A stretch of 64,000 nt of DNA from positions 310,001 through 374,000 of the forward strand of contig QPGO01000007.1 of assembly GCA_008632985.1 (NCBI GenBank), written 5' to 3'. This stretch comes from Psammoneis japonica. Its lineage: Eukaryota. The notes below the pieces were generated by a model. It had not been told where the DNA came from, did no database searches, and saw nothing but the letters and a program-made list of their open reading frames with translations. Positions 10,690-33,599 of this stretch are shown one piece after another (the stretch's first letter is position 1; each line of letters starts with the position of its first letter). Both the position numbers and the translations under genes were made by a program.

Positions 10690-11800
10690 ATGAAACCACG
10701 TACTATTAAACCCACTCGAGGAGTTCAAGCCCACCCAAAAACACTTGTCCTTTGAACGCGGCATTTGTTTGACACTTCTCAGGTGATCACTTCTCCCCAT
10801 TGTCAGGCCTGTCTCTGTTTGTCTGATGGACCCATCTCTGTGGGCTGCAAAGCCACCATCTGGCATGCTGTCACTGCTTCTCCCCTGGTGGATTGCAGTC
10901 GGGAATAAAACAACTGGTCTGTGTCCATCATGGAGATGATTCACAGAGATGATTGGTTGGCATGTGCACACTGTGTTGGTCCAAAGGTTTTCAAAGAAAC
11001 ACATGTCCATGGTCAAATTGAAGGTTGCTCATCAGTGCAACCCAGCCAGCCCTCACTCATGCCTGTCCTGTGAGCATCATCCAAAGGAAGACAGGGACCA
11101 CATCTTGCAGTGTCCAGCCAACAAACCCTGGTGTTGGACCTTTCTCCAAGGCTTGCAAAAACACTGTGACACAATGGACACTGTGCCTCCCCTGTGAGAC
11201 TTTCTCATTGCATCTCTGTAAACTTGGTTTCAGGGGGTCAAATCACCTGTGAGCCTGACACATGCCCCCATGCTGTGCTTGCTTTGGTGCAAACAGTGAC
11301 GCTGGATGGCAACAACTGCTTGATGGAATTTGCTTGAATTGTGGAATGCTTTTCAGGAGATTCATCTGTGGGAGTCAGGTCTGCTCCATCAATGTCAGGC
11401 AGATGATTGCTGCCCTCCAAACTGGTCAGTGCAAATTGGCTCTTGGTCACAACAACAAGACTTGCAAGTCTTTGCAGTGCAGGTCAGAAGAGGCCAAACC
11501 AACTGCCTGCTGCACACAACAAACATCAGGAGCATCTCACCAAAGATTGAGATGTCCTGGTGGAGGATGTGGAAGTGCACCTCACTCACTCTGCAACAAG
11601 AATTCAAAGCTGGGTCACTGTGGCCAAACCTGTGTGCTTCGTGGCACTCATTCCATTCACAGCTGTTGTGGTGGGGCATCATCTTCCAGTGATGCCCACC
11701 CTGGCCAGTCCACACAGCACAGGCTCCTGTCACATCATTTTGATGCAATGCACTGGGAGTGTGGGTCAACTGGTGTCAGCCCAGCTGGCAATGGAGTGGC
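10690..11800 (+). mobile_element. Decayed non-LTR retrotransposon 3' part (C-terminal zinc knuckle)
   Basis: SCLSCEHHPKEDRDHILQCP (CxxC..E..H..C), GWQQLLDG and LWNAFQEIHLWE across shifted frames; TA- and CG-depleted. Confidence 0.6.
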
Positions 11801-11849
11801 AGCACTTTAAGTTGGATCTGTTTGACCAGCCACCTGCCAATGATTTGTT

Positions 11850-14800
11850 TTGTCCCTGACAGCAAGAGGCAAATCTTGAGACAATGCACAAGGACAATGA
11901 CCACAAGGCAACATTTCAACATGGGGATGAAGAAAGCAGACAATTGCAGAAAAAGAAATTTCCAGATGTTGCTGCAGCATGTTGCATGCAAGGACAAAGT
12001 GCTTTTGCTCATGAGTTTGTTGCAGGACAAGGGCAATGGTTCATGACATCCAATTGGAGACAAGAAGTGACAATGTCCAAACTGTGCATCCAACTGATGT
12101 TCTGGCTCTCCATTCTTGGCAGGTGCATGTTATGAAAAGTTTGCCCTGCAATTGCATGAGCCAGAACAAAAGCAAAACAGGCATTGTGCATCATGCTGTG
12201 TCTCAGGAAGCAAGCATCTCAGAGGGGGCATCAAGATCCTGCCATCATTGTGCACCAAATTTTCTAAATCCAAAGTGCACTGGCCCTCTGGTGATTCACC
12301 ATGTGCAAATTCTTCAGTCCCCTCAGGTCAACAAGGTGGACATCAAGTTGGTTTTTGATCCAACACACCTCCTGGCCATGTTCAGTCACCACTGGGCAAC
12401 AAGGAAACTTTCAGTCCCCTCAAGTCAACAAGGCAGACATCAAGTTGGTTTTTGATCCAACACACCTCCTGGCCATGTTTGGTCACCACCGGGCAACAAG
12501 GAACCCCAGTGACCTGCAAGGAACCCACTTGGGAAAGGGAACTGGGTGGGGCTAACCCCAGTCACCACAGATGCTGTGGAGGATCATTCACATGACCCCA
12601 CCTTGCTTTGTGCCTCTGCACATGATCTCAGCAGCAAGATCAGCTGGATTGGTGTGCTCCAATCAAATGTGTCCAGCAAGTGATTCTCCCATCACCACTG
12701 ACTCCCTGATGGCATGACAACAAATGGAGCTCAACTTCTTCTTTGCAATGGGCTCTGGACTTTGTGCATTGTGGACAACCAGCATCTTGTCTCCACAGAC
12801 ACAAGAGGGTCTGGACAATGGCACACCCATCATCCACAACTTGTGTCACAAACTGTGCAAAGCCTCCATGCCTGGCTTCATGGTCTCAAAACTTGACACC
12901 ATGGACCAAGGTTTTGACAGTGCTCTGGTGCTTGGAAAGCCATGCCACCAGGGCCATGTTTAAAGAAGCAAAGCAACCACAGAGTGGGTGCCCAGTTGTC
13001 TTGTCATTCATGTGATCCAAGTCAACAAACAGCTGCAAATCAACCTCCTTTCCCAGGGCTTGAGGTGTGCTTTGCTTGGGATTGCCTCCCAAGTGTCCCT
13101 GCAAAATGACCCTCTTTTCAGGCACAAGGCAGCAGGTGTGCTGTGTTGCAGGTGGGCACATGACCAAACCCCTGTGACTTTGATGTGTGCAAGTGTGGCA
13201 GTGCACAAGAGACAAGAATCACATTTGCTCTCTCAACACTGAATGATTTGGAGGTTCTTGATGTCTGCTGCCTCAAAGAGCAAAAAGACAAGGACCACAA
13301 CTCTGGTGGGTCCTGAGTTTGGACCAGATGCAAGATGAAGGTGGTTGTCCAAAGAGCACTGTGTGGTCTCAAAAGTGCAGTTGTGTCTTTCAAGAATGAC
13401 CCAGCCAGATGTGTTGCTCCAACAAGAGGTCAAGCTTGAAGATGGCTTTTGGTGCTTTGCCTCCTGTGCACTGATGTGTGTCAATGATGTGCTGATGGTG
13501 CACCACTGCACCACATGACAGCATTGAAGGAGCTCAACCAGTGCTCAAGATGAAGCCCAGCTCTGCCATTTGCCCTGAAACACACCTTGGAGCTGAGGCT
13601 TGCCATGTCCAGCTCCCAATTGAGTGTGTGCCTGGGAAATGAGCTCCAGCAAGTGTGCTCAATGGGCTGTCAATGGCACTGAAACCCACTCAGATAAAAA
13701 GAGCCAGAACAAGCACTGCCATGCAGGGCAACAACGCCCATTCTTGGAGAGTGCCTGTTGCCCAGAGGTGGGTGCTTTGCCCAAGCTCAGCATGGAGGAT
13801 GCCCAACTCCACCAGTCACAGGAGGCAGGTGCACCACTGTTGTGGATTGTGGAACTTGGGCATGTGGATGTCATCACAGAAGTTTCCAAGTTGGCCTCAT
13901 TCTTGGTGGTGATGCTGCAGGAGGGTCACCTGGAGGCAGTCCCACATGTGTGTGGATGCTTGAAAGTGAGGGACAATGCCAGGCTGGGTTTGACCTGACT
14001 TTCCTGGGAACAAACATGTCCAATTTCACAGAGTGTGGCTGTGAGTCTTGCAGCTTCACACTGAAGACCAAGTGGCATTTGGTGTGTTGGCATCCTGCTG
14101 ATTTCTTGTCTTTGTCTGTGACCTTGAGCACCTGTTTGACAGTGTTGATTTTTTTGTCAATTGCACTCTGCCATTGATGGCCCCATTGGCCTTGTCAATT
14201 TTGATGGCTTCCCCATGAGTTTTGGGAATCCTTGCTCTTTGTGAGTCTGCTTGCAACAGTGCTTGTTTGCTGTGGCCAAAACCTTGGCATTTCTTGAAAA
14301 AAGAAAGATCCAACTTTAAGTGCCATGACTCCATTGCCAGCCACCAAGCCAGCACCAGCCAACCCACACTTCCAGTGCAATGTAAAGTGTGCAGAAGCTT
14401 GCAAGGGTCAGCCCAGATTGCTGCCACCTTGCAGTGATGCCCACCTGAGGCAACTGGGAATGATGAAATGACACTTTGTAGGTTGGCTCTGGCAACACAA
14501 CAGCAAAGGACACTTGCACTTAGAACTTGGTTTAAGATCAGCAAAAGAAATGAGATGGGAACACAGCTGCCAAACCACTGGCTTGCACTCATCAAAAAGA
14601 GGCCACTTTCACTCCTCCAAGCACTGTGACAAGAACAGCAGAAAGATTGCTGCGTGAAGCAGGGAGCTCAATTTGCCAGCAAGCAAGGAAGGGGTTGTTC
14701 TTGTCCAGGGCTGGAAGGTGAGAAAAAGAAGTGCTTGACAATGTGACAAGTTGGTTGTCAGAAAAAAATGTTCATCTCACATGGAAACAACACCAGAGTT

Positions 14801-17800
14801 TTCACAGAAATGCCAGTGCATGCAGCACATGGATGCCTGTCAAATGGCGTCAACGGATGACTCATGTTCATGCTCGTGTGTGCCTCAAGGGAGAGGTGAC
14901 ACTTTCGCTGCTCAGAGTGAAGAACTTGACAGGCCAACAGGGAGAGAAAAGATTGTTAAGGACAGATTGGTGTGGATGAGAGCAGGTCTGTAATTTGATT
15001 GTTTAAGCCACATTGGAGGATGTTTCAGGGCACAAGGAATTTGCACTGAAACCTGCATGGAAATGATGCTGAGTTGGCAGAAAATTGTGAAAAAATCTCA
15101 ACAGGCTTGCAAACCATGAGATGTTGATGCCACTTGCTTTCCACAGGAAAATGTTGCTTTTGTCATGCTGCAACAAGGGTGTGCAAGTGCAGCTGGCAGA
15201 AATTGCCGAAGTGGGATGGTGACACCAAGCAAAATGCCATCTGAGAAGGGTGACATCAGCAAAAGATGGTGCACAAAAACACATGCAGAGGCTGAGGGTG
15301 AGTGGCTGACATCAAAAAGTGTTGGCATTCTTTCTTGAGAGTTGGGGACAACAGATGTCATGTCATGGCAATCTCCTGTTTGCACCATCAGATGTGGGAA
15401 ATTGCTCAGGAAAACATTTTGGATTGTGGTTTTGCAGGAATCTCATGTGTCCCTTGGCATTGCAAACTTGGAACCCTGGGTTGAATTCCCATCTGTCTGC
15501 ACCTGTGCCAGATGCACATGGCACAACTGTCACTTCACAGGTGGGAGGCCCTGCAAGACAATGGGCAGCACAATGTGCAAAGCAGAGCTTTGTGAGCTGA
15601 ATGATTTGTGTTTTTGCTTGTGTGTGTGTCATCAATGTCCAAGTGATTGGCACAAATGAGTGACTGCACATGCCTTTTGTGCACAAAATTTGCACCAGTC
15701 TGCATGCTCAAGGATCAACAAATGAGGTTTCTTCACAAAAACTTCCGGCACCAAGTGAGTTGAAAGTGTCAGAGCCATCATCTAATCACCTCAAATGTTG
15801 GCCATGTCTTTTTGCAAAACATTTGAGCATGGATGTGGCTCATGAAGCAATGCCAGAGTTGACAAAGCAGTGCCATGCTTTGAGAGTTGAACTGGTTTGC
15901 AGCATCCACAAAAACTTCCAAATGTGTTCTTCAGCATCATTTAAAAAAAAAATCAGATGGGTCACATCTGCAAAAATGCTCTTGTCATTTGCCAAAAACC
16001 ATCATTGTCAAACATCAATGTTCGCCAAATTTCACACTGGCAAAAATTGACAGTTCTTGCTTTGTCAGGAGACAAATCCAAACCCATGGGTTGACTTGTT
16101 GTTGACTCTAAACAAGAAACAGCTTTGAGCCATGCAGATTCCATGTCTCAGCATTGAAATTTTGCAATTTGATGTCAGCCACTCTGTCATTGTTGTTTTT
16201 TTTGAGAACACAAGATCTAGAATTTCTGGGTTCTCCAAGATGCCTTGGCCAATTTTCACATTGCACAGCAAATTGGCCTTGACAATGATCGTCAGGGCTT
16301 TGGACATGGGGTGTGGGGAGCCCCCACTTTTTTCCATGTGTCATGCCACACAGGCTCCACATGATGCGCAGCATGCACACCCAATGGCCCAAAAGCTTGA
16401 TCAACCACACACTCTCACACCACACTCATTGTGTGCTGACCACATTTGCAAATGCACAGTGGGGCCCTGTGGTGGGGATGCCATCTTTTCCCCTGAAACT
16501 GCCCCACTGCATGCAAAGGCCTGACAATGATCTCATGTTTTGGACTCTTGTCTTGCACCCCAAAGAAGCATGAGCTTCAGACTTGCCTGTTGCCTCAAGC
16601 AGCAGGAGCCAACCATCTTTTGCAGCAGTCCTGCCCTGGATTTTGTGCGTTGCTGCAGCTCAGCCAAGTCATTGACACAAAAGCCATTGACAACATGACT
16701 GCCATCATGATGCTTTCTTTTTGGTGTGGCCTGGCTCCCCCCCCCAAAAAAAAGACTGCTGCAATCTTCACAGAGTCACAGACATGCCAAGAAGTGTGGC
16801 ACACCCCCAGGTCTGTGCCCAGCACTGGCCTTTGTTGCAAGCCAAATGCTGCACCTGCAAGCATGTGGCACATTGCACAACGCTCCTCAGTTCTTTGAAC
16901 ATTGCCAACATCTCTCTGCACTGTGGGCAGCCAGTGCTGTGGCACATTTGTGCACCCATGTTGATGTGGACACCGCTCAACTCTTGGGCTGCTGCACTCT
17001 GACAAAATGCTCCACTGGCATCTCCAGCTGCAAGCAGAGCTGACCCTCACAACTTTTTGCATGAGCTGTGCTTGCTGTCAACCTGCCCAGTGCAGATGAA
17101 CCGGGTGCCCCCCACAACCCTGCACCAAAACACAGCATGGTTTGGAGTTGTCTTGTGGTCATTTTTTGAGAGCAGCTCTTGTTTGGAGAGTGAGCTGGAC
17201 AGCACTTGGCTCTGATTTGCTGAGATCAAGGTCATCACTTTCTTTGTTGGAATCCATTTCCACCAACAGCTCCATGGCTGCTGGTGCTGTGAATGGATCA
17301 ACAGAATCTTTTGCATTGACAAAGTTTGGCCAGCAGTCGTTTTGGGTTTTTTGACCCAGTTCTTGATGGGGAGTCTGCTGCAGCCCCCCTCTTTCTTGGC
17401 ATCCAGTGCTGTGATTGTTGCAGGCAAACTTGGCATTGATGGGGGATGCCATTGGTTTTTGCATTTCAGGAAGCACTCAGTCAACAACAGCACATGTCTT
17501 TGGACAAATCTTGGTGCTGTTGTGGGGTGCTGTGCCAACAAAGCCATTGACAAAAGCCCAAACAGCTTTGTGTTTGCAGCACAAGGAAGATGCCTGTGCA
17601 AAGAGTGTGCATCATTGTTGTTGTTGGTGGTGGTGCTCATGCCAAAAAGGCTCACTTCCTTGAACAAAAGAGCAGCGACCACAAAGGGAGTCTTGGAAAT
17701 TCCTTCCGCAACTCCCTTGGCCAATGATGTGGTGCAGTTCATCATGCTTTTTTCTGTGATTTTGGCTTCAAGCCAATGGCCAGTGCTTTTGACATGATTC

Positions 17801-18500
17801 CGGCATTGTGGATTTTGCATGTCACTTGCATCTTGGCTGCTGGGCAACTCCAAAGTGAGGGGGGCACTGGAGACGTGATCAGAGCAGCTTCTCAAAAAGC
17901 AAGACAGTCAGCCCAGCTTCAGCAGCAAACATCATTGCTCATCATTGTGGCCACAAATTGTCATTTTGGGTTTCAGCTGATGCTGCCACATAATGAGAGT
18001 CATGGCAAGCCTGGCTTGTCCTTTGGTGGCAGGTTTTTTGAATTTGCAGTGCTGGCCACCCATCTTCCATTCACCAGAACTTTTGCACACTTTGGAGCAC
18101 ACAAGTTTTGTGTGTGTTTGTGCAACTTCAACCATTTCCTCCCAAAGTGGTGCACAAATGGCCACATTTTGCATTTGGCCCTGACCTTTTGTGAGCTCAA
18201 AGCATGCGGTCATTGCCCAAAGAAAATGCATTTCTCCAGAGTTCAATTTCACACTCATGTTGAAATTGCCAAATGCAAAATGAATGTGAGTGCATGCTGC
18301 AGTGCTGACGCCAAACAGCTGGCTGTGTTGGGATGCCCTGCTGACCCCAGCCACATGGAACAGCCCTGTGGCTGTGGGTGGAAGTGTCCACATCCCAAAA
18401 AGCAGAACAATCATCTGAAACCACCCAACAATGTCTGCTCCATGTTTGGAGCAACAAGAGACAACAACAATGGCACATGACAAAATGGCAGACTGATTTA
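11850..18500 (-). mobile_element. Decayed Ty1/Copia (CoDi-type) LTR retrotransposon, rearranged, with an inverted block at about 13275-14050
   Basis: RT/RNaseH remnants LGKEVDLQLFVDLDH...AWLSKHQSTVKT and ELGHVDVITEVSKLAS...GHLEAVPHVCGCLK; colinear similarity to 60640-64000. Boundaries are approximate and other fragments are interspersed (about 14600-15700 unassigned). Confidence 0.75.
12313..12503. repeat. Tandem duplication of about 97 bp
   Basis: ttcagtcccctca.gtcaacaagg..gacatcaagttggtttttgatccaacacacctcctggccatgtt occurs twice in a row; there is a single copy in the homologous element near 61083. Confidence 0.85.
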
Positions 18501-18639
18501 ACAGGAGAGTTGCCCCTGCAACACAAAAACACAATTTGCCAAATGTTTTGAGCAAAGGTTGGGAATTGTGGAATGGGAGAGTCAGAGAGGCAGGAAAAAA
18601 TCAGAATGGGACATGCAACATGGAGCAGAAGGATGGGAG

Positions 18640-19200
18640 ACAGAGGAAGAAGAAGAAGAAGAAGAAGAAGGGGGGGCTGGAAGTTCAGACAGATGGAGGG
18701 ACAGAAGTTTCAGGAGGCCAAGCCAGGAAGGATTGGCAGGTGGCAAGGTGATTGGTGGAAAAGGTGAGACCAAAGTTGAGGCTCAAGAGCTGGGTGGCCT
18801 GAGATTGAGGGGTGTGGAGGTGTGGCAGGAAGAGCCAAAACAGTCAGGAGAGAGTTGTTTCCAGGCAAAATTGGTTTGGATGAGAAGGCACATTGGAGAG
18901 AAGAGGGAAAATTGGCAGGCTGCAAAAGAGGCATTGGAGTTTGAAAAGTCAGTGGGGACATTCCAGGGGGCATGGGATGAGGCAGCGGGATGGAGGAGGA
19001 GGTGTCATGAGAAAATCCACAGAAAAAGACATGGAACATCAACAGCAATGCTTTGGTGCATGGAGGGAGCATTGGGAGGTGTGGAACCAGGAGCAAGCTG
19101 AGTGCCAACATCAGCAGGGTGCTTGAGAGGACAGTCAGGAAGAAGTCCTGGCATGGGCTTGAGGTGTGGACTTCTTGTTGACAAGAGTGGCACAAGCCAC
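18640..19200 (-). repeat. Purine/pyrimidine-skewed dispersed repeat, homologous and inverted to 22900-23480; possibly a non-LTR element 3' region
   Basis: gagagagttgtttccaggc (about 18848) versus reverse complement gagagagttgtttccaagc (about 23178-23196) with colinear flanks; (GAA)n at 18645-18670. Confidence 0.5.
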
Positions 19201-20899
19201 AAAGGGGGCCAAGGGTTTAAAGTGTGGTCCAGACAGTGTTGTGGATGTGGTTTGACAAAGGACCCTCATGCATCTTGGAGCAAAAGCGTGGTCACCAAAG
19301 GGTGTCAGAGTGAAAATGACCACATGGGGGCAAGGAAGAGGCCATTGGCTGGGGGAGAGAACTGGGAAGCAGAGCTTGTGGAGGAGGAGAGTGAATTGGG
19401 TGGAAGAGAGACAGTTGCTTGGTCATGCATCGTGTCATGCCCGCCTGCCTGGCTTGGGAGGTCCACAGAAATTGTGTGGAAAATTTAACTGGCCAAACTG
19501 AAAAGTGCAATGCTCTGTGGGGAGCAGTGCTCATGACAGCAAGAATTCTTTTTTTCTGTTTTCCGGTTTTCTCCTCTGGCGTTTGTGTTGTGTGTGTGCA
19601 TCTTTTCATCTTGAGAAGCACGGCACTTGCATGACACTGCATGACACATGCTTCTCAACACACCACCATTGTTGTGCCATTTGACTGCATTGCAACCACG
19701 TGGCCCTGCCAAAACTGTGTGTCAGGGATCAAACAGCAGCAGGACCATGTGAAATTGGGCCAACTGAGTTCTGTGCACAAGCTCCTCTGCAGCAAAATCT
19801 TCAGGTGACAAACAGAAATTATCAATTGCCAATGGAAAAGGAGAGGAGGCACCAATTTTGCAATCGAGCAACAAATTGTCCATGCTTGAAGCATGCCCAT
19901 TGTTCTTCAAACATTGAAGAAAACACCCAGCCTGATCATTGACCCTGCTCAGACAAGCATGATCTTTGACCCTGCTCAGACAAGCATGACGTGCTGTGCC
20001 ATCTTGCATGTTCACATCAAGGCAAGGGGTGGAAAACACAAATTGTTGCACCTGTGCATCAAAACGAGCATCCTTGATGGATCATTTTTCTTGCACCAGT
20101 TGTTTCTTGTTGGCAGAGACACCTTTGCGTTTTGCCTTCTTTCCCCACAATGCTGTTGTTCTCGGCGGCGGCGGCATGGGTGCTACCCAAGAAGAAGGAC
20201 TCATGACAAAGGCCAAGCCATCATGTGCCGCAACTGACAGAATGGCAAGAAGGGCACAAGGTGGCCACCATGGTGAAAAAGCCACAGTCATTGCAGCAAA
20301 GAGGAGACGCCAACCAAAGAGTGGGCGAAAGAAAGAACAATGAGCGGCGAGGGTTGCATCGTTGGGGTCGCAAAATGGGCAAATGTGATGTGCAGCCCTT
20401 GTCCTCAGTGGGCATGTGAATGAATGTCCTGCTTCATTTCCCCTCCATTGGCATTGTGGGTGTGGTGACGTGCCTCCTGCATGTGGGGTGCTGCAGGAAG
20501 GATGGACTGACTGTCAACTGGTGGCACGTTCTTGCTGGGTTGGAGTGCAGCACTGCTGGAGTACGAAGCAATGCATGCAGTGCAAAAGATTCCATGTTTC
20601 CGAATTGCAATGCCCACCCGCCCCCCCCCAAGCACCTTCTTTGACGCCATCTTTGGGAGGGGAGGTGACCTCGTCCGGCACCAACAAGGGCATTGGGAGC
20701 ACGACAGAGGCTGGCAAAAACCAATCATCACCATGGTGCAAGAGGCATGTCCGGATTCCAAAGTCGTGCATCTGCCGAAGTTCTCTCCTGATGAATTACC
20801 ATGCCAGGCACCTGGTGTTGAATCTGACGTTTCCATGCAAGATGAAAGACGGGGAGACGGTGCGCACCAAAGTGACAAGTTAAGTTCAAGATCAGAAGT

Positions 20900-21580
20900 G
20901 CCAAGAACCATGAAAACATCAAGATGTTGCTCCACCTTGGCGACAAGAAGTTGCAAGAACTCATGGACTACAATGAATTGTCAGATGTGGTTGAAGATCT
21001 CAAGCATGAGGACAATGCAGCTGATCTGTCATGGACATTTCAAGACGTGCTCAAACACCAAGGACCTTTGAAGAAAGGTGATCCCAGACGCAACACAAGT
21101 TCATGGAATGTCAAGGTGAAATGGGATGCCGGTGAAGAGACTTGGGAACCTTTCAACATTGTGATTGAGCAGACCCTGTCACGTTGGCGGCGTGCACTCG
21201 TGATCATGGATTGCTCAACGTTCCTGGATGGAAACGTTGAAGCGGTGCTTCAAGTGCTCAGACTTGCCAAGAAGCTCGCACTGTGACAAATGCTGCAAAG
21301 AAGTTGAAGAACAATCAAGTTCACTGCAAGTTTGGTGTGTTTGCATTCCACGCATTTTTTGTGAAGCCAAGATGCTCAATGAAGAGAATGGCAACACAAA
21401 ATGGCAAGATGCCATCAAGGCCGAGATTGCTCAGTTGATGGAGTGTTCTACCTTCCATGACTTGGGCTGTGCAGCCATGACACCTGAAGGATGTCAGCAC
21501 ATCCAATGTCAACTAGAATTCAACGTCAAGCAGTCCCTGAAGCACAAAGCAAGATTCGCTGCATGGGGAGATGTGACTAA
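20900..21580 (+). mobile_element. Copia (CoDi-type) pol fragment: chromo-like segment and RT start
   Basis: VLKHQGPLKKGDP...WNVKVKWDAGEETWEP; IPR..EAKMLNEENGNTKWQDAIKAEIAQLMECSTF...PEGCQHI...FNVKQSLKHKARF. Confidence 0.75.
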
Positions 21581-21741
21581 CAACACAGCAACCCACGGCA
21601 ATAAATGACAATGACATGAACAAACAACAACGCAACCAATGGAGATGATGGCGCCGGTGAAGATTGCTGTAGAAGAGGACAAACTGTTTTTGTTAGACCA
21701 GGAGAATCTTTCAAAATGTCTCACCGTCGGAGCTTGATTGA

Positions 21742-21851
21742 CAGCAAAGGGTTTCAGATTGATCGGATTGAATTGGTTGAGAGTGGCAGACAATGCATGC
21801 TGGGCCCACTGCAACAGGCTTTTTTGGGGGTGTTTTGGCGGAGAGAACGAC
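21742..21851 (+). repeat. 110-bp dispersed repeat, mutated copy of 27641-27750
   Basis: Direct alignment with 27641-27750; TA and CG sites of that copy are replaced by TG or CA here. Confidence 0.9.
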
Positions 21852-21879
21852 AACCAAGAAGCAAAAAACAAGGCAACCT

Positions 21880-22620
21880 CTCATGAAATTTGACTCCAGC
21901 TTGTTTTGTTCTCTCACTGAAATGCCGAGGCCAGAAGTCAAAGATGCCTCACATGGTGCAGCACACGTTGCTTTTAATGCAGACACACCTCTGCTTTTGT
22001 CGGTTGAAGATCCTGTTGGTGAACTTTGCACCAGAATTGCTTTTGCAGCATTAAAAGAATGGCAGAGACCCAATGACAAGAAGGGGTTCCCAATGTTCTT
22101 GAAGAACAACAGAGTTGGTCCAGAATGGGTTGAAGATTGGCTTGGAGATGAAAAGTGCACTCTGTTTGTGGATGAACTGAATCTGCTCCAGAGACACATT
22201 GGCAAGACTGAAGCAAGTTTCCTCAAGCAACACTTCCTGCTTCAAAACGGAAGGGGGTTGGTCTTCACTTCTCATGTGTGGCGCATTTCGGAAATGACCT
22301 CGCCATCCACCTGTCATCAAACACTGATCTGCCTCTTGTGTCAATTCCACTCCCAATCATGCTGTCGCTGCATGCAGCAAGGCGTGCCTTTGGCACAAAT
22401 GACTTGTTGGCACAGGGTGCCCTTTTTCTGGGATTGATTCCAGGGCTGATTGTTGAGTGGAAGATGCACCGAGGACCAATGGAGCACCAAATTGCCACTG
22501 TTTTGAGGTTCCTTGGTGCACTTCAAAGCCAGCAAGACATTTGCAGGCTGCTGAGCTCTGTTTTGACAGGTGCGGGCGTCAGAAAGCATGTGGAAGAGCT
22601 GATGACTGTCACATCGTGGC
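21880..22620 (+). pseudogene. Decayed Crinkler/RHS-type P-loop NTPase fragment
   Basis: ELCTRIAFAAL...WVEDWLGDEKCTLFVDELNLL (Walker B-like)...FLKQHFL...LVFTSHV, then LSLHAARRAF...FLGLIPGLI in a shifted frame; no Tyr. Confidence 0.45.
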
Positions 22621-22899
22621 ACACTGTTGGCGATGTGGAACTTGACAACTTCTTCGCAGTCTCAGCAAAGTGCTGTTCTGCAAAGCAATGGAGAATGCTG
22701 CAAAAAGAGGTGCAGAGAGTCCATCAACAAGTGAATTCGGAGTGCACATGGTGGACTGTGTGTGACAAGTGCCACTGTGCTTGTTGTTGCAGAAGCAGCC
22801 AAAGCACACTCAGGCAAGCGGCGATCCTTGTGAGCAAAGGAATTGCAACAAACAGACAAGCGCAGGCTGGCCCCAGCTGCAGGGCATGACTGATCACTT

Positions 22900-23480
22900 C
22901 CAGAGTGCTTCATCATTGCCAGCAGCCTGACAATCTGCCTTCATGCCATGGCCTCCATTTGGATGAAATGAACTTGTTTGGGTGTCTGTCCACTGACACC
23001 ACACATGTCTGTCAGTCGACCACTGCCTCCCCTTCCACCACATCCTCCTCCATCCCACCCCTTCCTCCCAAACCACCCTGGACAAGTCCCTCCTCCTTTC
23101 CCAACTCTCAAGCATCCTTTTCTGCCTTCACCAACTCACTTCTCGCGCCCTCTGACCTCCTTGCCAACTCCAACGCGGCTTGGAAACAACTCTCTCAAGA
23201 CCGCTTCGGCTCCTCACACCACACTTCAACCCCTCCACTCTGGGCCTCTCAAATCCTCAGTCTCAACTTCGGCTTTGCTCTGTCCACCCATCTTTCCACA
23301 TGTCAAGCTCTTCTCCTCTGCCACCCTGCTGTCACCAACACCTCCTCTCAACTGTCTGTCCGTACTCTCGGCCCACCCATTTTCTCTCCATCTGTCCGCT
23401 GCTCTGGAGCTCCAGCAGCGCACTTCGCGCAACCCTCCCGCCACACATTTCACCTCTTCCACACCATGGACACTCTAATC
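22900..23480 (+). repeat. C/T-rich dispersed repeat, homologous and inverted to 18640-19200
   Basis: See 18640-19200; the reading AAWKQLSQDRFGSSHHTSTPPLWASQILSLNF is weakly reminiscent of non-LTR C-termini. Confidence 0.45.
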
Positions 23481-24191
23481 ACTTGTGAGTTAGCTGTGCA
23501 GGGCTGGTTGGTTGTGCATGTTTGGGTTCGATGTGACCGTCCAACTGGCCATGCCCTGCAGGAAAAGCTGTTGGTGGCGCGGGAGCAGAGGCAACAAAGC
23601 AAAAAACACGGCATCAAAACGTTGTAAAATAACGCGACAACAAGCAGTGAGAAGAAACCCAACTTGACCCATGAATACAGTGCATAAATATTGTCCAATA
23701 GATTTGATCTTATCTTGAAATACCAGCTGGTAGATAAGTGAACGGCGTTCGCGTTGCTCGCCATGGTGTTGTTGTGCGTTATCGTGAGGCTGCCGCTGTT
23801 GATTGCGCGCGAAGAACGGAGATCTATTTTGCCCATAGTGACTCTGTTTTTTCAATAGTCGATGTTTCCCTATACACAATCTGTCCATAATTTGAGAAGC
23901 GCTTCGCGACAACCCTGTTCGCACCGTTAAATTAACAAAATTTTTTTTATAAAGATTTCAGAGTTCTTTTGGGGTGTTCTGTCACACTTTTGAGTTGGTA
24001 TATATGTGTATTAGAGGCATGAGTAAATTCAATGATATGTAATAGCCTCAGAGACCAACATAAATTTATGTTCCATGTAGACCGCGTAGATTCTGTACCG
24101 GCGAAAATCCACCGCCTGTCAACTCATCAGTAGTAATTCTACGTATACAGTACGGTATTCTACTTATACACCTCACACACGCACACATAGC

Positions 24192-25740
24192 CAAGGATTT
24201 ATAAGTCTGTCAGGATGTACAAGCTCCGGTACAAATCTACGCACGAGCCTGTTGCCATGCGTGGTACGAACACCGTTAAAATTTGTACTGCGTTTTACGG
24301 CAGTCTACGTAGGGCTTCTGACGGGACGAACATATCATTTATAAATATCCATGCACAAATATCATAGATACCTCGAAGACGAAACGTGATGGAGGGGAGA
24401 AAACAGACGGCACACGAAACGTGATGGAGGGGGGATAACAGACGGCACGAAATGTGATGGTGCGGGCGGTGGCGTACGGTACGTGGATGAAGACAGAGAC
24501 GAAATGGAATTTCAAATATGGTAGCTCTAAAATCTGCCGCCGATTGCCAATCAACCCAATGACTGATTGATTGTTGTAACGATGAGTGATGATGTATGCT
24601 GCTGTAGTTTGCCAAATTGTCATGTGTTTCGACAAGCGCTGATTCACGCCAATGATCCACTTTGGGGTCGCCCGCTGGCAAGGATACGCGTGACGCAAAA
24701 CACACGATGCAAGCGTCTCGTCCAAAGCATTGTCCATTACTTGAAGCCCGAGAGAAGCACTAAAATTTTATGCATTGCCCCTCATCACTGGCCAAGAATC
24801 AAAAATAAGACACCACCTAGATGGGAAAGATGGAGATGGAGAATGACATTGTTGGTTTGTTTGTCATGCCGGCACTGTAAATGCATGATGCATCAACACT
24901 GCTTTAAATGTAAACATACCTTTCTTTGGCACACAGCCTTAAGAGTTATCTGCACGAGATTCCAGCCCGCTCGCTCGCATTCCAATCGCAGAGTCTCCAC
25001 GCCACCAAGATTTACCCCAGTTTTCGGTCCCCGAACGAGGGAGTGCTACTAACCGGCACTCGGCAAGGTCATGGACGTCAATGTCCAACCCATTGCACAT
25101 TGTAATTGTCATTATTCGTGAAAGTATCAACTGTAGCTTGCTTGGTTCAGTCCAAAAGAGAGCGTAGGACACACCACAGCCCCGTTCCGACACAAGGAAG
25201 AACATGAGTTGAAAAGAAATGGTGTCGACACCGACACGAAACTATGAGATATTGTTCGTCCGTAGGCGTGATAAGTTGCTCAACAGCTTCTCTATATGAG
25301 TTATAAAGACGAACATGTCAAAGAAAATGAGTGAGATGCCGAAACAAAAGCACAATATAATTCGATTGCGACAGAGAGCGACAATGAGTCTCGAACCGTG
25401 GTGTCAATACAAAATCCTTTTTTCACCTTACAATTGGCCGCTTACCTTCGAAAAAGCAACATAAGCTGTTTCTATATGGAGGTAAAGACTAGTAGATAGC
25501 GTTGGTACTGTTGAAAGGATCGTCAATAGTCTAATAAGCGGCGCTCCGATTATCATGGTGTGTGGTGCTTGATGAATGATGCGCGATCCCTTGAAAAAAT
25601 GAGGATATACAAAATATCCATAAATTAATATACTTTAACGGCGGAGTTCGCACCGTCAAAATTACTTAGAGGCTGTTGACCACGCATGGCAACACGCGTT
25701 CTACGCAGCTTGTACATCCTGACAGACTTATAAATCCTTG
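24192..25740. mobile_element. Young non-autonomous DNA transposon, 1549 bp, perfect 34-bp TIRs and 8-bp TSD (P-element or hAT superfamily)
   Basis: TIR caaggatttataagtctgtcaggatgtacaagct at 24192 and its exact reverse complement ending at 25740; TSD cacatagc at 24184-24191 and 25741-25748; subterminal IR gttgccatgcgtggt / accacgcatggcaac; internal short tandem repeat at about 24380-24460; no transposase ORF. Confidence 0.93.
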
Positions 25741-25918
25741 CACATAGCCCTAGACGTGCGTACGCCTACACAGTCTAATAACCGCGCACTAAGTGCGCGA
25801 GAAAAATCAACAGCAACAAACCACAACACAAAAGGTAAGCTTAGTTTCCGCCTAACCACTAAAAAAAAAAAACAAATGAAGTCCTTGTACATATGATAGG
25901 TACATCTACAAATGCATC

Positions 25919-27542
25919 ATGTCGAAACGAAAGGCGAGGGAAGTATCTGTGCGCACGTCTTTGGGGGACCTCTTAGCACAATCAGAAATCCCGACACTCT
26001 CGAAAGGGAACCAATCGATGCAAAGTACACCGCACATCGAAGACACGGGGCACGAGGAAGCTGCCCCGGTCCTTAAAGAAATCACGCTCCCCGAGGGAGA
26101 GCTGTTTCTTCCTGACGGAGTAGAAACTCAACCGAGCGCCCTCCTCACGGAGCTTGGGAATGCTGATCACTTTACGTATCAGAATGAGACCAAAGTTCAA
26201 TTTCTTGTCGCAGCTTGTCTAAAAGACGCGCTCCGGAGTCTTGATCTGTATGATGAATTTGCGGTGGAAAGCGAATATTCCATTTTTTCCCTCCGTCCAG
26301 ACATTGTTGTTGTGAGCCATACCGGCAAGGGAATTGTTCTGGTCATTGAGATAAAAAAACCTGGGGACGGAGTTTTTGAATCCCATGAGGTTGGCGGCCA
26401 AGTGTTTGACTACCTGGTGGGCGTGCTCTTGTCTGGGGTTGATACCCCGTTTGCTGTTCTCTCGTGTTATGACGAGATGCGCATTGCTCATTTGGACGAC
26501 GGTGGTGCCTCGCGCGAAATTCTCGATAGGAATGCATCGCAGCTCTCCGAGGACGTTGACAACGATATTCTCGCCTCTTTTGGCATTGGAGGCCATGACG
26601 GCAAGCAGTCACCGAACCGGAGTGAACTTGAATCAGCACCATCAAGCCCTCCGTCAAAATTGAACAGAGTATTTGGTCAGAGTGAACCACCTGTTGATGT
26701 TGGGGGTAGTGATGGTGATGATGATGAGGAGGAGGAGAATAACGTTGAAGAAAAGCCAAGCAACGACGAGGATGAAGATTGGGATCGCGCAGTTGTTTAT
26801 ACGCAAACTTTTACGGGGAGAAGCGCAATAAAGGCTCTTGTTCTCGCCATTCGTTGCGGACTTGAATCTATCGCGAAGAGTGAGCCCCGGAATGTGCCGA
26901 TGCCAGGGGCAAGTGCAGGCGGCTCTTGTGCCAGAGTCAACACAGAAGGACTTGTATATGGAAACATGCCGACTAACATACGCTTCAGCTACAATAAGTT
27001 TCCCGGACCGACAACAAAGACATTGTACCTTTGGAGAGACCTTGGTCGAGGCAGCAAAGGGCGCGTATTTCTTGCTTGTAACACTGGAGGCAATGCATGC
27101 GCTGTCAAATTCTTCTTGATCAACTACGATACATATCATCGCCAAGAGGGGACAAGGCTGATAGACAAGCTTTTAGACAAGCTCAGATGAAAATTAAGGA
27201 GGTGGAGGCAAACCGCGAAAAAGACTATTGGCTTCAGGTATACGGGGATACCTTTAAAGACCAGGTTCGTGTTGTGCAATTGAACAATCATTGGTGCCTG
27301 ATGATGCCATATTTTGACCAAGTCGCAGAAGACCAAAGAGAAGCTGCCTTGATGAAGTCCGCAATCACCTGGCCCGAATTAAGGGGATGGGCTTGCACTA
27401 CGACACGAAAGACCTACGATGGCGTCATATTGGTGTGCGAGGTTGTACTCCCTATATTTTTGACCTCGGATCGTTGGTAACATGCAACTCAGCTGATGTT
27501 GACATTGATGCCTCGATGAAAATTCTTAGTGACAAGATCTAA
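25919..27542 (+). pseudogene. PD-(D/E)xK nuclease-like plus protein-kinase-like fusion (Crinkler-type REase-kinase, DUF5898-like); two frameshifts at about 27150-27190 and about 27350
   Basis: SLRPDIVVV...LVIEIKKPG...GQVFDYL; DLGRGSKGRVFLAC...CAVKFF; continues LMMPYF, then DLRWRHIG...IFDLGSL to TAA at 27540-27542 in shifted frames. Confidence 0.7.
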
Positions 27543-27640
27543 TCAAGAATTTTTATCAACGTTTGAATCAGAAGCTGTTTATGATCAAATGCTCTCGACA
27601 ATGTCATCTAAGAAGCTGGAACCAAGACGACGAAACCATT

Positions 27641-27750
27641 CAGCAAAGGTTTTCAGATTGATCGGATTGAATTACTCAAGAGTGGCGGACAATACACGCT
27701 GGGCCTACTGCAGCAGGTTTTTGGGGGGTGTTTTGGCCAGAGAGAATGAC
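27641..27750 (+). repeat. 110-bp dispersed repeat, unmutated copy of 21742-21851
   Basis: Direct alignment; this copy retains TA and CG. Confidence 0.9.
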
Positions 27751-28569
27751 TGGCATTGCTGGAGGCCTCCTGGATGGTTTTAATCCACTTTGCTTTATGG
27801 AGATTTGTGTTTTGTACCCCTATTCTGGAAATTGTACACATGATGACACTGTTGACTGTCAACGTGGAGGATCACTCGTTGTATTGATTGATCAGATTCA
27901 TACTATTTATTCACTCGCCATGGCCATGGGGGCACTCATCCTCACGTGGATTGTTTGGTGGTCCTTCCGACAAAGAGTCATCCATAATCAACGGTTCCAA
28001 TTTGATGCGCAACAACTAGAACAACCATCCGCATCATCATTAGCACCAACAGCATCACCGACATCGGCGAGAAGAAATGGAGCGGGAAATCTACGTTCTT
28101 CGACTGGAAACGAACCTCAAATACGTCGGTTGCGTGCGGTCAGAAATCAGGCCATGTATTGCACGGCCGCCTATCTGAATGGATTAATCTGGGTCTCGTT
28201 GGGGAATTCGGCCGCGGGCTGGTTCCTACAGGAGGACAACAGCTATCAACCAGTTGGTGGTGTCGTAGCACTCAAAATCTTGGGATGGTTCTTCTGCCCA
28301 TTACAAGGCTTCTGGAATTTTTTCATTTTCATCTGCCCAAGATAGAGCCGTACCGAAAGGCTTGTCCGGACAAGATTTGGTGGTGGGCTTGTCGACGAAT
28401 ACTGGCTGGTCATCCCGTCCCGTCAACATTTAGACGAACAAGAAGGACCACGGATACCGGTAGAGACGCCAGTGATCCTTCCTCCCACTTGCGATTGGTG
28501 TCCGAAGAAGCCGAATCATCAAGCCGACTTGGGACAGGTTTGAGGGACGAATCAAGAGACTCACCCTGA
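27750..28569 (+). pseudogene. 5'-truncated 7TM/GPCR-like gene fragment with a frameshift near 28340
   Basis: Hydrophobic helices and RAVRNQAMYCTAAY...FFCPLQGFWNFFIFICPR, continuing YRKACPDKIWWWACRRIL in another frame. Confidence 0.6.
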
Positions 28570-28829
28570 ATCTAATCAGATTCTCAGTATGTTCTTGGAC
28601 CTTCCAGTTTTGCACTTTTCGACGGCCATATTTTTGCCTTTCGTATTATGACACTAACTGCAAATCACTACTCTAGTAACTGATCATTCACCGCATGTAT
28701 TGTTATTCACTAGGACGCTAGGAGTGATTGATTCTGAATGCGCTCGATTGTAGCAATTCTTGATGGAGTCTGAGCTCGACGCTTATCTACTTGTTCGTCG
28801 CGCCGAGCATTGCAGACTGAAGAGGGTCA

Positions 28830-30222
28830 TCACATTTGCGAGAGTGTCTGTTGCGCTGGTTGAGCAGCTCCAGCAGCCATGCCGCTTGGTGGCCCTGGCA
28901 AAAAGTAAGCATGTTGTGGCTTGACAGGTTTCATGGGACGTCCGTTATCACCAGGGTTCCAGGAAATAATCTCCATGCCCCAATTGTAAATTTTATCGCA
29001 AAAGGCTTGCATGGACAGGATAGTGAATGGTTCTTCCAGTTGAGTGGCTAATTCATCAATGCCAAGCAAGAACAAGGAAAGCACGAAGGTTGCCGGAATC
29101 ATACCAGCATGATTCCAGGTGTAACCGTACACATCATAAAGGGCGAAGGGAATCAGCAGTAACCATGCTCCCGTAAATCGTGCCGTGTGGCGTGAATAAA
29201 ACAGTGGAATGGGTGAAGTCAAGAGTCGTTCCGAACTACCCAAATCATCCTCAAAGATAGTAACCGCCTGATGGATTTCATTCTTTCGAGCAAAGTGCAT
29301 GGGTAAATCATCAATGGCAAAACTCAAATCCTGCAGAGCCCTATTCGGCCGATGAGCTGCAGAAATGATCATTTCCGCTTGCTCTTCGGGCATTTTTTCG
29401 TACAGTTCAATACAATAGTCTCGTTCGTCTTCTTCCTCCGGTGACAAGTGTCGTTTCATGGCACGGACAAATGCCCAGGTACAGAGCGCGACATGGTTCA
29501 GATCATCCTGGCGCTGCTCTGGCGAAACGTTCGTATTGTCATAATAGGTATTCGCCATTCGAACCAAGTCACGTGTATGATTAATGTTCATACCCCAGTT
29601 TTTCCGGGCTTCATCCTAACGTCGGTAAGATGTGTTGGCACGAAAGGCTATATTTTCCATGAATGTGCAAGACAGGGAAAGTGTTAGCACGACGGCTATC
29701 AACAAGACACTTCACTGAAGAATCAATCTCATAAGGAATGCTCCCAACTTACTTAAAAGCAAGCCCAGAGCTGGACTGGACACGGTAAAGGCCGACAAGG
29801 GGAGACCGATCTTTTCGCCTGTAATTACGGCACGGCCACCGACGTACACGCATAAATTTCACGCTTAGGATTTTGGTAGACGCCAGAGCTAAAGAGAGAA
29901 CCCAAATAAATCAAGAAGCGGTCTTGCGATCGGTGTTTCTTCCAGTCCTCGTGCGTGTACACGGTCCGTCGAAATTGACGGGCTGTCTCCGGATTGATGT
30001 CCTTGTCGTCAAGCGATCCAATACAAAAATTGTCCCATCCTGTGGCACCCTTTAATAGTGTGGTACTTCTAGCGCTGGTAGTAATAACAGTGGCCGATGA
30101 TGTCCTCGTCAGTCTGCTTGCAGGAAGATTCGGTGGAGTGATGGGTGGGGCAAATCCACTCGTGATCGACAGACTTGCCAAGGACAGCACAACAGCTGCG
30201 TGAAGGTAATGCGGGCAACCAT
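28830..30222 (-). pseudogene. Plastid-targeted bestrophin-like anion channel pseudogene (intron 29648-29752)
   Basis: Signal peptide plus SG-FAP motif; RQFRRTVYTHEDWKKHRS; SPALGLLLTFRANTSYRR*DEARKNWG with TAG for Trp at 29616-29618; ERLLTSPIPLFYSRHTARF; LGIDELATQLEEPF. There is a frameshift in the signal peptide and a frameshifting deletion near 29830. Confidence 0.85.
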
Positions 30223-30303
30223 TGTCGGCCAGAGATTCTTGGGGAGTGTCCTCGCTTTGGGAGGAAGGGATGCAATCCTTGTAGCCTCAGCAATTACTTG
30301 GCT

Positions 30304-30498
30304 GATCAAAGGCTTGTGAGCGAATTCTGGCTCAGCGTGCAAACAACACGACAATGGCCGAAATGCCGTTCGTTGAATGCAATAGAAGTGGGGCGTCGAG
30401 TATCTTTTTTCATAATGTCGCTAATGATACAAAAGTACAACATGTTATGAAGAAAGACACTCGACAGATCGTGTTGTTTGCACGCTGAGCGCAGAAGA
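30304..30498. mobile_element. Internally deleted copy of the 7706-8123 foldback element, upstream of the bestrophin start
   Basis: Close match to 7801-8038; cgtgcaaacaacacga / tcgtgttgtttgcacg inverted repeat. Confidence 0.85.
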
Positions 30499-30499
30499 T

Positions 30500-33400
30500 G
30501 TTTGAGGCAAAGCTCTGGTTGCTTGCACATGTTTGAACATCTCACAAATCACATGAGAACCCAATGTCTCAGGACTTTGCTCTTGCCATGCAGGTTCTGC
30601 AACCAACAACATCAAAAAAGGCTTTGACCAGCAACTGCAGTTGGGTGTTGTTTGGTGAATGACAAAATGAGTTGTTTTCCACGAGTCTTTTCAGCATTGA
30701 ATGTTTCAACAGCAAAGCTGCCAGCTGTGGCATGGCTGCACAAGATTCTCTGGACAGCTGTGGGATCCAGAGATGTCCAAGTCAACATTCCACTGCAGCA
30801 GGGTGATGATGCCATGCACCACACCAACATCATTAAACATTGCACACATCATCTCATTTGCTCCATTGTGCAGTGACACAGAATTTGTCAAGTGTTCATC
30901 AAATTTGACAGAAATGTTGGGACGTCATGCACATTGTCCGGTGCCAATTTTGAAGGTTCTTTGTTGCCCCCTCTGCCATCTCCGCCTGTCAGCACCAAGA
31001 TGCACTGAAGGCACTCCTGCATTGTGAGCCAGCACACAGCCAAGTGAAAAGAGCAAAGATGCTCCAAAATGTTCAAAGCACATTGTCTTCCGCCAGTTGT
31101 GGTGTTGAAGGGAGCCCCAATTGCAAGCTGCACATGCTCGGGCAGTGCAAATGTGCACATTTTCAAAAGCACACAACTTTGCATGAATTAATTCATTTCA
31201 GCAAGACTTTGCAACAACCAGCTCCCTGTCTCACAGAAAGTCAGCATGCACAAAATGTGGTGCACAAAATGTGGTGCACACTGTGACATCAACCTTGTTG
31301 AACGTCAACATTGTGCGACAATGTCATTTGCAGCTGGAGGGTTGGTTTGGGCTGGACACTTGTTGTGCAAAGCCTCAAGCGGCAAAAGCTGGAGCAACAG
31401 AAGATCAGGAGATGAGCTCAGATTTGGACCTGTCATCTCCAAGACGACATCCTCCAGGAGACAGTCTCCGAGATCTAGAAGCAAATGAAACCTGTTGGCA
31501 GTTGTGACAAAACAAACAGCTGGCCAGTTTTCATTGGCTCCATCATCACCTTGCAGACATGAAAGCATGCTTGTCATGTGCTTTGTGAAACAGCTGCCCT
31601 GAATGTCAAGGGCCAAATGTGCTGAAGACTTGAGCTCCTTCATCAAGGCAGTGAGGTCATTCTCGACATTGCTTTCCCAACAAAAACCACATCATCACAT
31701 GACAAGAGACTCTGCAGCACTGCAAAAGAATCTCTTGCTTGCTTGCTTGCCCCAAATCTTCACCAAACAAATTGCGAGAATGTTGGGATGTGCAGGGAAC
31801 CTGAGCATGACAGCTGAAGTGCTGCACAATCCTCGCACCATCCTGAAAAGACACTGTGCTTGATGTCAAAAGAAAAGGCACCAGCAATGATGCTTTCCTG
31901 TGCTTCTGCATTTTGCTTTGGGGGCATTTGTTACAGTGGTGGGGCTGATGAGGAGCTGTCACCAAATCTGAAAGCACACCCAGACTTGGCCATGTTGCCA
32001 CTGCTCTTTGACCCCTGAAAGCCTCAAGTTTGGAGCATTTGCCACACTTGCCTCCCAAGCATCACACCCAGGATGTTTTTCCATTGCTTGATGCTCTTGT
32101 GCATTTTGCTGTGAAGCACCCACACAAGCCATTGGGAGCTGGGTGCTTGGTGTCATTGGGCTGTCCTCCTCACTCCTCATTTGTGCATTCAATGCTCAGA
32201 GGATGTGGCACAGCCATGCAACATGCCTTGAAAAAACACACCATGCTCATTGTTCATGACTGTGTCTCAAGTGGACTGCACCAGTGCAAAGCCCTGATGA
32301 ATTTGCAGCCTTTGTCACACTTCCTTCAAACCCAAGCACAAACCTTTGCAAGTCTTGCTGTGTTTTTCCAGCTGACCTTGCAGAGCATTGTTTTGTTGTT
32401 GATGCCAGAGGCTGCTCCATCTGGGGCATGTCCAAATGATGCACACTTGGCACTGTCATGTTGTTGTTGTTGTTGTTGTTGTTGTCATTTAGAACAGCCC
32501 ACATAACTGCATGGAATGTTTGCAACTTGGCTTTGTGCAAACTTTTGTCATTTGTTGTTGGGCACATTCAAAGAAAGCATGCCTCTGCCATGTGTGAGAA
32601 AGTCTTTGTCTGCTTCTTGCTCTTCCCCCACAAGTTTTTGTCCAAGCATTTGCAAGAAATTGGGTGCTGAACAGGTTGCAAGAAACTTCTTTTTGCATTG
32701 ACCAGAATGTTGATGACCCAATGCTCCTGGCTGGTCTGCCAGAGTGTCAGTGCTGCAACTTCTTGGTGCCCCAGTTCCCTCATGTTGGCAATCCTCTTCT
32801 TGATGCTCTGCCAGATGGAGCTGCATTTGCTCTGCATTGGTCCTTCTCTTGCACTCCCTCCCTCTCTGCTCTCTGTTTGTGTGGTGCATTCTCTCTCCTG
32901 CAGGCAGGTGGGGTGGCTCTCTGGCTGGAGCTTTGCCTCTGGGTTCTCTGAAAGAGCAAGCCCCAGGTTGAGGTCTGGTTTCTCATGGCTTGTGCCACAA
33001 CCAACCAGAGAGTTCTGCAGGAAGAGCATCAACCACAAATGTCAGAATGTCATCCCAAGGGACCCAGACATCTGTTTGAAGGGACCCAAAGAGATTGAAA
33101 AGAAAGAAGATTGTTTTGACTCCTGGTTTGGCCAACAGAAGTCACATTCTTTGAAGAGATCAGCACCATCATCAATCCCTGCATTTGTTTGCTCTTGCTC
33201 TTTAGAGCAAATCATTTGGCTCACACAATTGTCAGTTGTTGGTTTCAAGAGAAGCCTGTTGTCATGTCAGTTGCACATTTTACATTGACAACAAGGCAAT
33301 CCACAGCCACCAAAGACTGCCAAGGCAAGTGCATCAAGTGGCAAAGAAGATGTCACAGGATTCGTTTTGGCAACATTGACCTGCCCATTCAACATTCACT
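30500..33400 (-). mobile_element. Decayed non-LTR retrotransposon (RT region); same family as 51955-53800 and about 37730-39670
   Basis: Colinear with 51955-53560; minus-strand remnants of GVQQGD, LAKIF and GF..G.S..D RT motifs; TA- and CG-depleted. Confidence 0.6.
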
Positions 33401-33599
33401 CCAAAGAGTCATTGGCACTGCATTCAGTGCTTTCTTGAAGACTGCAGGCTGCCAATCCAACTGAATGCCTGCATTGTGAGTGGCAAAGCAAGGAGGTGGT
33501 GGAACTGGCTGCTGGGGCCAAGGACATGGTTGCAGAGGTGACAGAAGTCACAGGTCCTCCAACAAGAACAAGAACAACATGAAACACTTTCAGGTTGAA

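Follow-up and report, generated by a model that had tools for sequence, protein, structure and literature searches.

The 110-bp segment at the centre of this analysis occurs twice in the window (the whole 64,000-nucleotide stretch analysed here), once in a TA-poor repeat domain (copy A) and once in a gene island (copy B). We consider it likely that copy A, whose domain is transposon-derived, had all three of its TpA dinucleotides turned into TpG or CpA after the two copies split, as one case of a process that is set by chromosomal domain, acts in place and on both strands, and changes A:T to G:C at TpA beside the decay of CpG. Taken alone, the pair is thin and unpolarised evidence of moderate interest, which holds for TA and not for CG. 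Other controls within the window establish that TA was lost after duplication, in place and within positional domains.

The 110-bp pair and its surroundings

A self-search of the window in 1-kb pieces returned the alignment of copies A and B exactly as it had been given in the preliminary description (86.5% identity over 111 columns, E = 9e-31), and no third copy within the 64-kb window. All three TA of copy B are indeed altered in copy A, to TG, TG and CA (attac/attgg, aatac/aatgc and cctac/cccac), and the two CG changes described from B to A are also present (ggcgg/ggcag and cacgc/catgc). The remark that few other positions differ is incorrect; the copies disagree in 15 of the 111 columns, through 10 transitions, 3 transversions and 2 gaps, and the cited sites make up six of these, leaving nine. 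Copy A also carries two CG (ggCGg and aaCGac) where copy B has CA/TG. Within the pair, TA change is one-way (3:0) and CG change is symmetric (2:2). At one further place the copies show a doublet of TG against CA (ttgag in A, tcaag in B), which implies that both were altered at a single ancestral TA or CG site and hence that copy B is not pristine either. Exchange between TA or CG on the one side and TG or CA on the other accounts for nine of the ten transitions. When 10 transitions and 3 transversions were placed at random, all three TA became TG or CA in 0.33% of 200,000 simulations (P = 0.0033). As an alignment of two copies is unpolarised, the pair by itself gives no direction; the TA polarity of the segment itself is read by analogy from the other tests in the window.

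Contigs from several sequencing runs bear on the same region. An outgroup copy was sought among metagenome contigs by a shared 23-mer (degenerate at CG), and the scan returned a single match, L001, which we reject as a chance match since it shares just 27 nt and has ordinary composition. Contigs of runs X3 and X4, from other organisms or metagenomes, cover just 25912-27642 and so supply no outgroup for the segment. Those of run X2 cover the island and none cover 20500-22902, where missing cover is not evidence. Run X1 has the depth of a single contig over both copies (50.7 over A and 59.7 over B), a figure that is uninformative on further copies because the known cross-match between A and B is not displayed there either.

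Copy B consists of the last 105 nt upstream and the first 5 nt of the membrane-protein ORF, downstream of the DUF5898 gene and upstream of the bestrophin gene on the opposite strand; its ATG is ACG in copy A. Homology between the copies ends abruptly on both sides at the DNA and the protein level, at copy B 5 nt into the ORF, and no longer homology was found around the pair at either level. On the DUF5898 side, a run X3 contig from a related organism can be followed as far as 27642, a single nucleotide off the first position of copy B, where it becomes unlike the window; this indicates that the left end of the segment is a real structural junction. The DUF5898 region itself (25912-27642) also occurs in contigs of other organisms and of biofilm metagenomes, with an identity of about 95-98%. 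The best matches of the bestrophin ORF reach 84% identity and include proteins of the diatoms Stephanopyxis, Entomoneis, Seminavis and Epithemia, which marks the window as DNA of a diatom. For the membrane-protein ORF, Pfam gives no family, and no protein of 109-349 aa matched as a homolog at E <= 1e-5; its first match in the Atlas (0.89) is GPCR or cAMP-receptor-like, a weak match that serves as a lead only.

We reject the reading of the segment as an RNA gene, a SINE or a structured element. Rfam gave no match at the gathering score over the window, nor at E <= 1 over 27400-27950, no tRNA was found for the segment, and neither copy, on either strand, folds better than its shuffles (z from +0.25 to +2.4). 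In our reading, the pair arose when a short piece of non-coding DNA, the 5' flank of the membrane-protein ORF, was duplicated at low copy number.

Compositional domains and their edges

Over the whole window, the observed/expected ratio (O/E) is 0.23 for TA, 0.46 for CG, 1.63 for TG and 1.57 for CA. This reflects a mosaic (Table 1; composition states called in 500-bp bins) in which about 70% of the window falls into domains with sharp limits, almost devoid of TA and CG and with TG and CA doubled. At island density the depleted domains together should hold 1976 TA and 2420 CG, but they have 191 and 648; in the deep domains the O/E of TG and CA is about 1.9. GC content stays at 0.44-0.52 in every bin, as expected if the changes from TA and from CG to TG or CA offset each other. 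Around copy A, the local O/E is 0.03-0.17 for TA and about 0.28-0.56 for CG. The domain edges are about 40-135 bp wide and adjoin genes, and across them the number of TA per 500 bp drops from 18-25 to 1.

Table 1. Coordinates of the copies, genes, repeats and compositional domains discussed in the text.
Feature	Position	Strand	Description
Copy A of the 110-bp segment	21742-21851	+	TA-purged, partly CG-depleted repeat domain; 0 TA, 3 CG
Copy B of the 110-bp segment	27641-27750	+	Intergenic 5' flank of ORF 27746-28342, gene island; 3 TA, 3 CG
DUF5898 gene	25880-27477	+	Gene island
Membrane-protein ORF	27746-28342	+	Gene island
Bestrophin gene	28833-29615	-	Gene island
Gene islands	4600-10700, 23625-30450, 50100-52100, 57700-61100		TA O/E 0.4-0.8, CG about 1
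Deep domains	10760-20000, 30490-44000, 61100-64000		TA and CG O/E each about 0.03-0.1
Intermediate domains	1-4500, 20000-23490, 44000-49900, 52180-57500		TA O/E about 0.03-0.2, CG 0.3-0.9
Depleted domain with copy A	10760-23490		Deep 10760-20000; intermediate 20000-23490 (copy A here)
Gene island with copy B	23625-30450		DUF5898, membrane-protein ORF, bestrophin, many-copy transposons of normal TA content
Second long depleted domain	30490-49900		Deep to about 44000, then intermediate
Repeat copy	11825-13106	+	Fully depleted; partner of 60621-61811
Partner copy crossed by an edge at about 61100	60621-61811	+	19 TA on the island side, 1 beyond
Repeat copy	31067-32316	+	Fully depleted; partner of 51823-53175
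Partner copy crossed by an edge at about 52110-52180	51823-53175	+	16 TA on the island side, 3 beyond
P0121, 651-aa open frame	55755-57707	+	TA-poor domain; decayed member of a large, multi-copy family of ~1000-aa proteins without annotation; protein-level outgroup test

A Pfam scan of the 97 ORFs of at least 130 aa found families in island ORFs only, with no transposon or viral domain among the 97 and no viral marker in the depleted domains. A fragment 130 bp from copy A resembles, at the level of motifs and by eye, what we take to be the start of a copia reverse transcriptase. This resemblance, together with the repeat structure and the protein family of P0121, is why we take the depleted DNA to be transposon-derived.

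The preliminary description held that location rather than sequence decides targeting. Support for this comes from two domain edges, each of which runs through one copy of a repeat, and from a many-copy repeat that lies unmutated in an island. Compared with its fully depleted partner, the repeat copy crossed at about 61100 has a transversion divergence of 0.072 on the island side and 0.042 beyond the edge, and the copy crossed at about 52110-52180 has 0.043 on either side. The first belongs to a long repeat family spanning 11825-16899 and 60621-63782, the second to one spanning 31067-32713 and 51823-53543. With edges inside single copies and similar transversion divergence on both sides of them, position evidently matters. 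The many-copy stretch, 22903-25839, is found in very many contigs (summed depth 2000-5000), and from 23625 on its TA O/E is 0.5-1.2. The data thus support a target set by chromosomal position and not by sequence or copy number, although the untouched island repeats may just be young.

This many-copy stretch includes a 1577-bp element (24188-25764) of normal TA content with inverted ends of about 74 bp (24192-24265 and 25740-25679, 78% identity). Run X1 contigs join 24187 to 25765 without the element, the skipped stretch starting with TA, and one contig at single-copy depth (59.7) that also lacks it links 24192 with 25760. The element has the look of a DNA transposon that moved recently.

Three smaller repeats were also seen. 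In a deep domain, a 94-bp unit is tandemly duplicated (12313-12503, 94% identity), and its six mismatches include two doublets of TG against CA. A 165-bp repeat (7801-8026 and 30304-30465, 92.7% identity) lies at the edges of two gene islands and has a partly overlapping inverted match as well, both copies having normal TA and CG. Finally, a unit of 73-75 bp occurs four times (47542-47616, 48781-48858 and 50302-50560), and its copies in TA-poor DNA have lost TA and CG that the island copies have. Two of the copies form a 259-bp palindrome ending at the only N of the window (50561); two MITE-like ends, or else an artefact of an assembly gap, may account for it.

Strands, flanks and the direction of TA loss

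In the two long pairs of island and depleted copies, TA changed to TG and to CA about equally often (7:7 and 9:7). The two outcomes interleave without runs, and no strand-coordinated clusters of events were found in these pairs, which indicates that both strands of resident DNA are hit, site by site. The TA that remain are not a random subset: RTAY makes up 8 of the 191 residual TA in depleted DNA against 242 of 807 in the islands, and YTAR 99 of 191 against 137 of 807. With island composition as a stand-in for the ancestor, a strand-wise fit gave TA survival by the 3' neighbour of the A as 0.70 for A, 0.42 for G, 0.15 for C and 0.11 for T. Aligned events agree weakly with this, with a pyrimidine 3' of the changed A in 27 of 40 and a ratio of 15:8 at sites of mixed context. 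These sequence contexts suggest 5'-TAY-3' as the preferred target. CG survival, by comparison, is flat across flanks (0.45-0.62). In the intermediate domains, 0.135 of TA and 0.525 of CG are left, and CG falls to 0.075 in the deep domains. In the intermediate domains the loss of TA is thus further advanced than that of CG, and it depends on flanks in a different way; both points speak for two processes.

This separation bears on the alternative that survives best, in which TpA would carry a symmetric modification in silent chromatin (such as N6-methyladenine or a modified thymine) and be lost through error-prone processing or repair, with no dedicated adenine deaminase. TA and CG are both self-complementary, as one would expect of a maintenance-type modification, the strands are hit equally, and the purge coincides with CG decay, a signature of methylated DNA. 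However, TA loss is uncoupled from CG loss in the intermediate domains, the two respond differently to flanking bases, and the bias towards a 3' pyrimidine holds strand by strand, as if each strand were recognised separately. We know of no TpA-specific methylation in diatoms, and overall we consider this chemistry unlikely.

The contigs of run X1, from the same organism, reproduce the depleted sequence at about 99% identity and a word depth of 50-53 (59.7 in the island). They differ from the window at 27 positions in 20500-23069 (2570 bp) and at two in 25760-28500 (2741 bp), a rate about 14 times higher in depleted DNA than in the island. Of the 26 differences listed, 20 are exchanges of CG or TA with TG or CA, in both directions, with eight CG found only in the window and eight only in X1. 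Run X1 is possibly the assembly's own read data and so does not prove the sequence independently. The differing sites may be alleles, strains or near-identical paralogs. The pattern fits recent or continuing mutation in place and suggests that this process is still driving alleles or near-identical copies apart.

Such differences also weigh against editing before insertion, in which an ADAR-like enzyme would change A to I in the RNA or cDNA of a mobile element, with its preference for a 5' U, and copy A would have been carried in by an element that was already edited. Copy A does lie 130 bp from the fragment that resembles a copia reverse transcriptase by eye. A-to-G change beside U or T is, moreover, a known ADAR context, stated as such in the Discussion of a preprint on the alga Bigelowiella natans (10.64898/2026.01.13.699255). 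Yet the two strands are changed about equally and the changes interleave, domain edges cut through single repeat copies, and near-identical contigs of one locus differ mainly at CG and TA sites, as change in place would produce. Copy A is also a fragment of a promoter flank and not internal to an element. We regard prior editing as quite improbable.

As for direction, six pairs of island and depleted copies (the 110-bp pair and five others, two small pairs sharing one island copy) contain 40 sites where TA in the island corresponds to TG or CA in depleted DNA, and none of the reverse. For CG in the same six pairs, the counts are 29 in this direction and seven in reverse. Twelve pairs in which both copies are depleted (4554 aligned columns) have 742 mismatches, 502 of them transitions. 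Among their 237 adjacent double mismatches, 118 are TG against CA, while the control, AC against GT, occurs four times. Such a doublet needs an ancestral TA or CG that was hit separately in each copy, so mutation followed duplication and struck the copies independently.

A test at the protein level is offered by P0121, whose family has 712 matches in the representative library. The alignment comprised P0121 and its 76 best matches out of 150 listed. At 11 columns where Tyr is conserved, P0121 has Tyr at three, His at four, Cys at two, Phe at one and Arg at one. It retains 58 of 75 columns conserved for Asp, Gly, Leu, Pro, Lys or Trp (Fisher P = 0.0018 against three of 11 for Tyr), and its Tyr content is 0.6% vs 3.6% in the homologs. 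Change of TAY to CAY or TGY is the predicted codon change, so the replacement of conserved Tyr by His or Cys, with the family as outgroup, shows TA to be ancestral. The genes of this family probably belong to a mobile element. Pfam has no family for P0121, and the one homolog listed with a precomputed domain record, P0123, shows no domain. Five of the 151 homologs examined have less than 1.5% Tyr and raised Cys plus His, which implies that other TA-purged copies exist in public data. The claim that the copy in the repeat domain was mutated after duplication therefore stands for TA, through these tests elsewhere in the window, and fails for CG in the pair, where changes run both ways.

The opposite direction, with TG and CA ancestral and the island copies gaining both TA (by CpA to TpA, as in fungal RIP) and CG, appears very improbable. 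It draws on the unpolarised state of a two-copy alignment and on the standing of RIP as the classic repeat-linked dinucleotide mutator. It would require two opposite transitions from one dinucleotide, to TA and to CG, and it conflicts with the doublets, which need a TA or CG ancestor, with the family-conserved Tyr that corresponds to the missing codons, and with the island values of TA and CG, which match the surrounding coding genes. Long-read basecallers miscall some modified bases and there are just three sites in the pair, but an artefact in which the TA- and CG-free domains are such miscalls, or a chance 3:0, can be given almost no weight, given the simulation for the pair alone, the 40:0 over six pairs, X1 reads that agree mutually at close to island depth (with the reservation on their origin given above) and differ from the window in both directions, and paralogs that, unlike a systematic miscall, differ in outcome (TG or CA) at the same site.

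Proposed mechanism and relation to known systems

In the mechanism that we favour, the copies would have split first, and the copy in the transposon-derived domain would then have lost its three TpA to TpG or CpA. The domain-wide process responsible would act on resident DNA, on both strands about equally and site by site, changing A:T to G:C at TpA, with ordinary decay of CpG to TpG or CpA running beside it. Targeting would follow the chromosomal domain, whose edges, sharp to within 100 bp, adjoin genes. The chemistry at TpA would most likely be enzymatic deamination in silent chromatin, which turns adenine into inosine; bacterial TadA naturally acts in a U-A-C context. CG would be lost through deamination of 5-methylcytosine. 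Adenine deamination, the 5-methylcytosine route and a role in genome defence are all inferred.

The closest precedent known to us comes from B. natans. In mutation-accumulation lines of this alga, two regions of integrated viral DNA gathered 231 mutations, of which 230 were A to G or T to C, all reported on TpA, and the authors propose, without demonstrating it, an ADAT2/TadA-like deaminase (Mettrop et al., bioRxiv 10.64898/2026.01.13.699255). The inserts of giant viruses and virophages, as that preprint describes them, share with our window a change of A:T to G:C that is confined to TpA and gives TpG or CpA by strand. They likewise form discrete regions unlike the host, with neighbours that mutate normally, and carry the same signature of TpA depletion with an excess of CpA plus TpG. 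The differences are considerable. Our host is a diatom (a stramenopile) whereas B. natans is a chlorarachniophyte (a rhizarian), and what is hit here, instead of viral inserts, is decayed repeats in which viral genes could not be detected. The purge is near complete here (TA O/E about 0.03-0.1) compared with a Rho of 0.45 given in the preprint's text for the virus region, and takes in most of the window, compared with about 5% of 1-kb windows given there for B. natans. CpG decay accompanies the purge in our window, while the word 'CpG' is absent from the preprint text; the same text also lacks the words 'trinucleotide' and 'flanking', and we see a TAY flank bias and edges within repeats. On the other hand, the B. 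natans text reports measured de novo events, whereas ours are inferred from differences between copies and contigs alone.

The resemblance to fungal RIP (in Neurospora and others) lies in dinucleotide-context transitions on both strands that irreversibly wreck repeats and leave compositional domains. RIP changes CpA to TpA and enriches TA and AT, whereas here TA is destroyed, TG and CA are the end state and GC is unchanged. RIP is also triggered by duplication, and here a many-copy island repeat is untouched (though it may be young) and edges cut through repeat copies. Membership in RIP is rejected, as the TA O/E and the TG/CA O/E of the domains run opposite to it and the GC range shows no rise in AT. 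ADAR hyper-editing and APOBEC3 also leave deaminase-type transitions at repeats, and the 5' U preference of ADAR matches TpA. These enzymes act on RNA or single-stranded cDNA and mark one strand of new insertions, whereas here both strands of resident DNA are changed, up to a positional edge.

In diatoms, CG methylation of transposons depends on DNMT5a, as described in PMC9998398. Decay of CpG in methylated transposons would match the CG half of the changes seen here and their restriction to transposon-rich DNA, but leaves the loss of TA unexplained, which is faster in intermediate domains and has its own flank dependence. We take the loss of CG here to be ordinary decay of putatively methylated CpG.

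With appreciable doubt, we suggest that diatoms possess an editing defence directed by chromatin domain, fungal RIP in mirror image, which would deaminate adenine at 5'-TAY-3' in silenced DNA, on either strand, for as long as any TA remains. Chlorarachniophytes would have this defence too, so that it may be of ancient origin or common throughout the SAR supergroup, and the edges would mark where the chromatin of active genes blocks the editor.

The first report of A:T to G:C hypermutation at TpA in resident DNA dates from 2026 and concerns a single alga, with two viral inserts only; in this diatom the signature is complete over tens of kilobases. New with respect to that case are the diatom host, the near-complete purge, the CpG decay, the flank bias and the edges inside repeats. 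A full-text literature search returned the B. natans preprint and no report of TpA purging in diatoms. If the pattern is genome-wide, this diatom would be a second, phylogenetically distant host for TpA hypermutation, and the process would shape genome architecture, with gene islands in a sea free of TA and CG. The repeat copies split by edges and the polymorphic sites would then provide natural controls with which the enzyme and the signal that guides it could be sought.

The purge also affects how such DNA is annotated. TAA and TAG are purged from the depleted domains, leaving TGA as the sole stop, and long overlapping open frames that match no family occur on both strands and in several frames (for example at 17050-19216 and 20085-23627). 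In TA-purged domains, gene finders would call long false ORFs, and similarity searches would miss the transposons.
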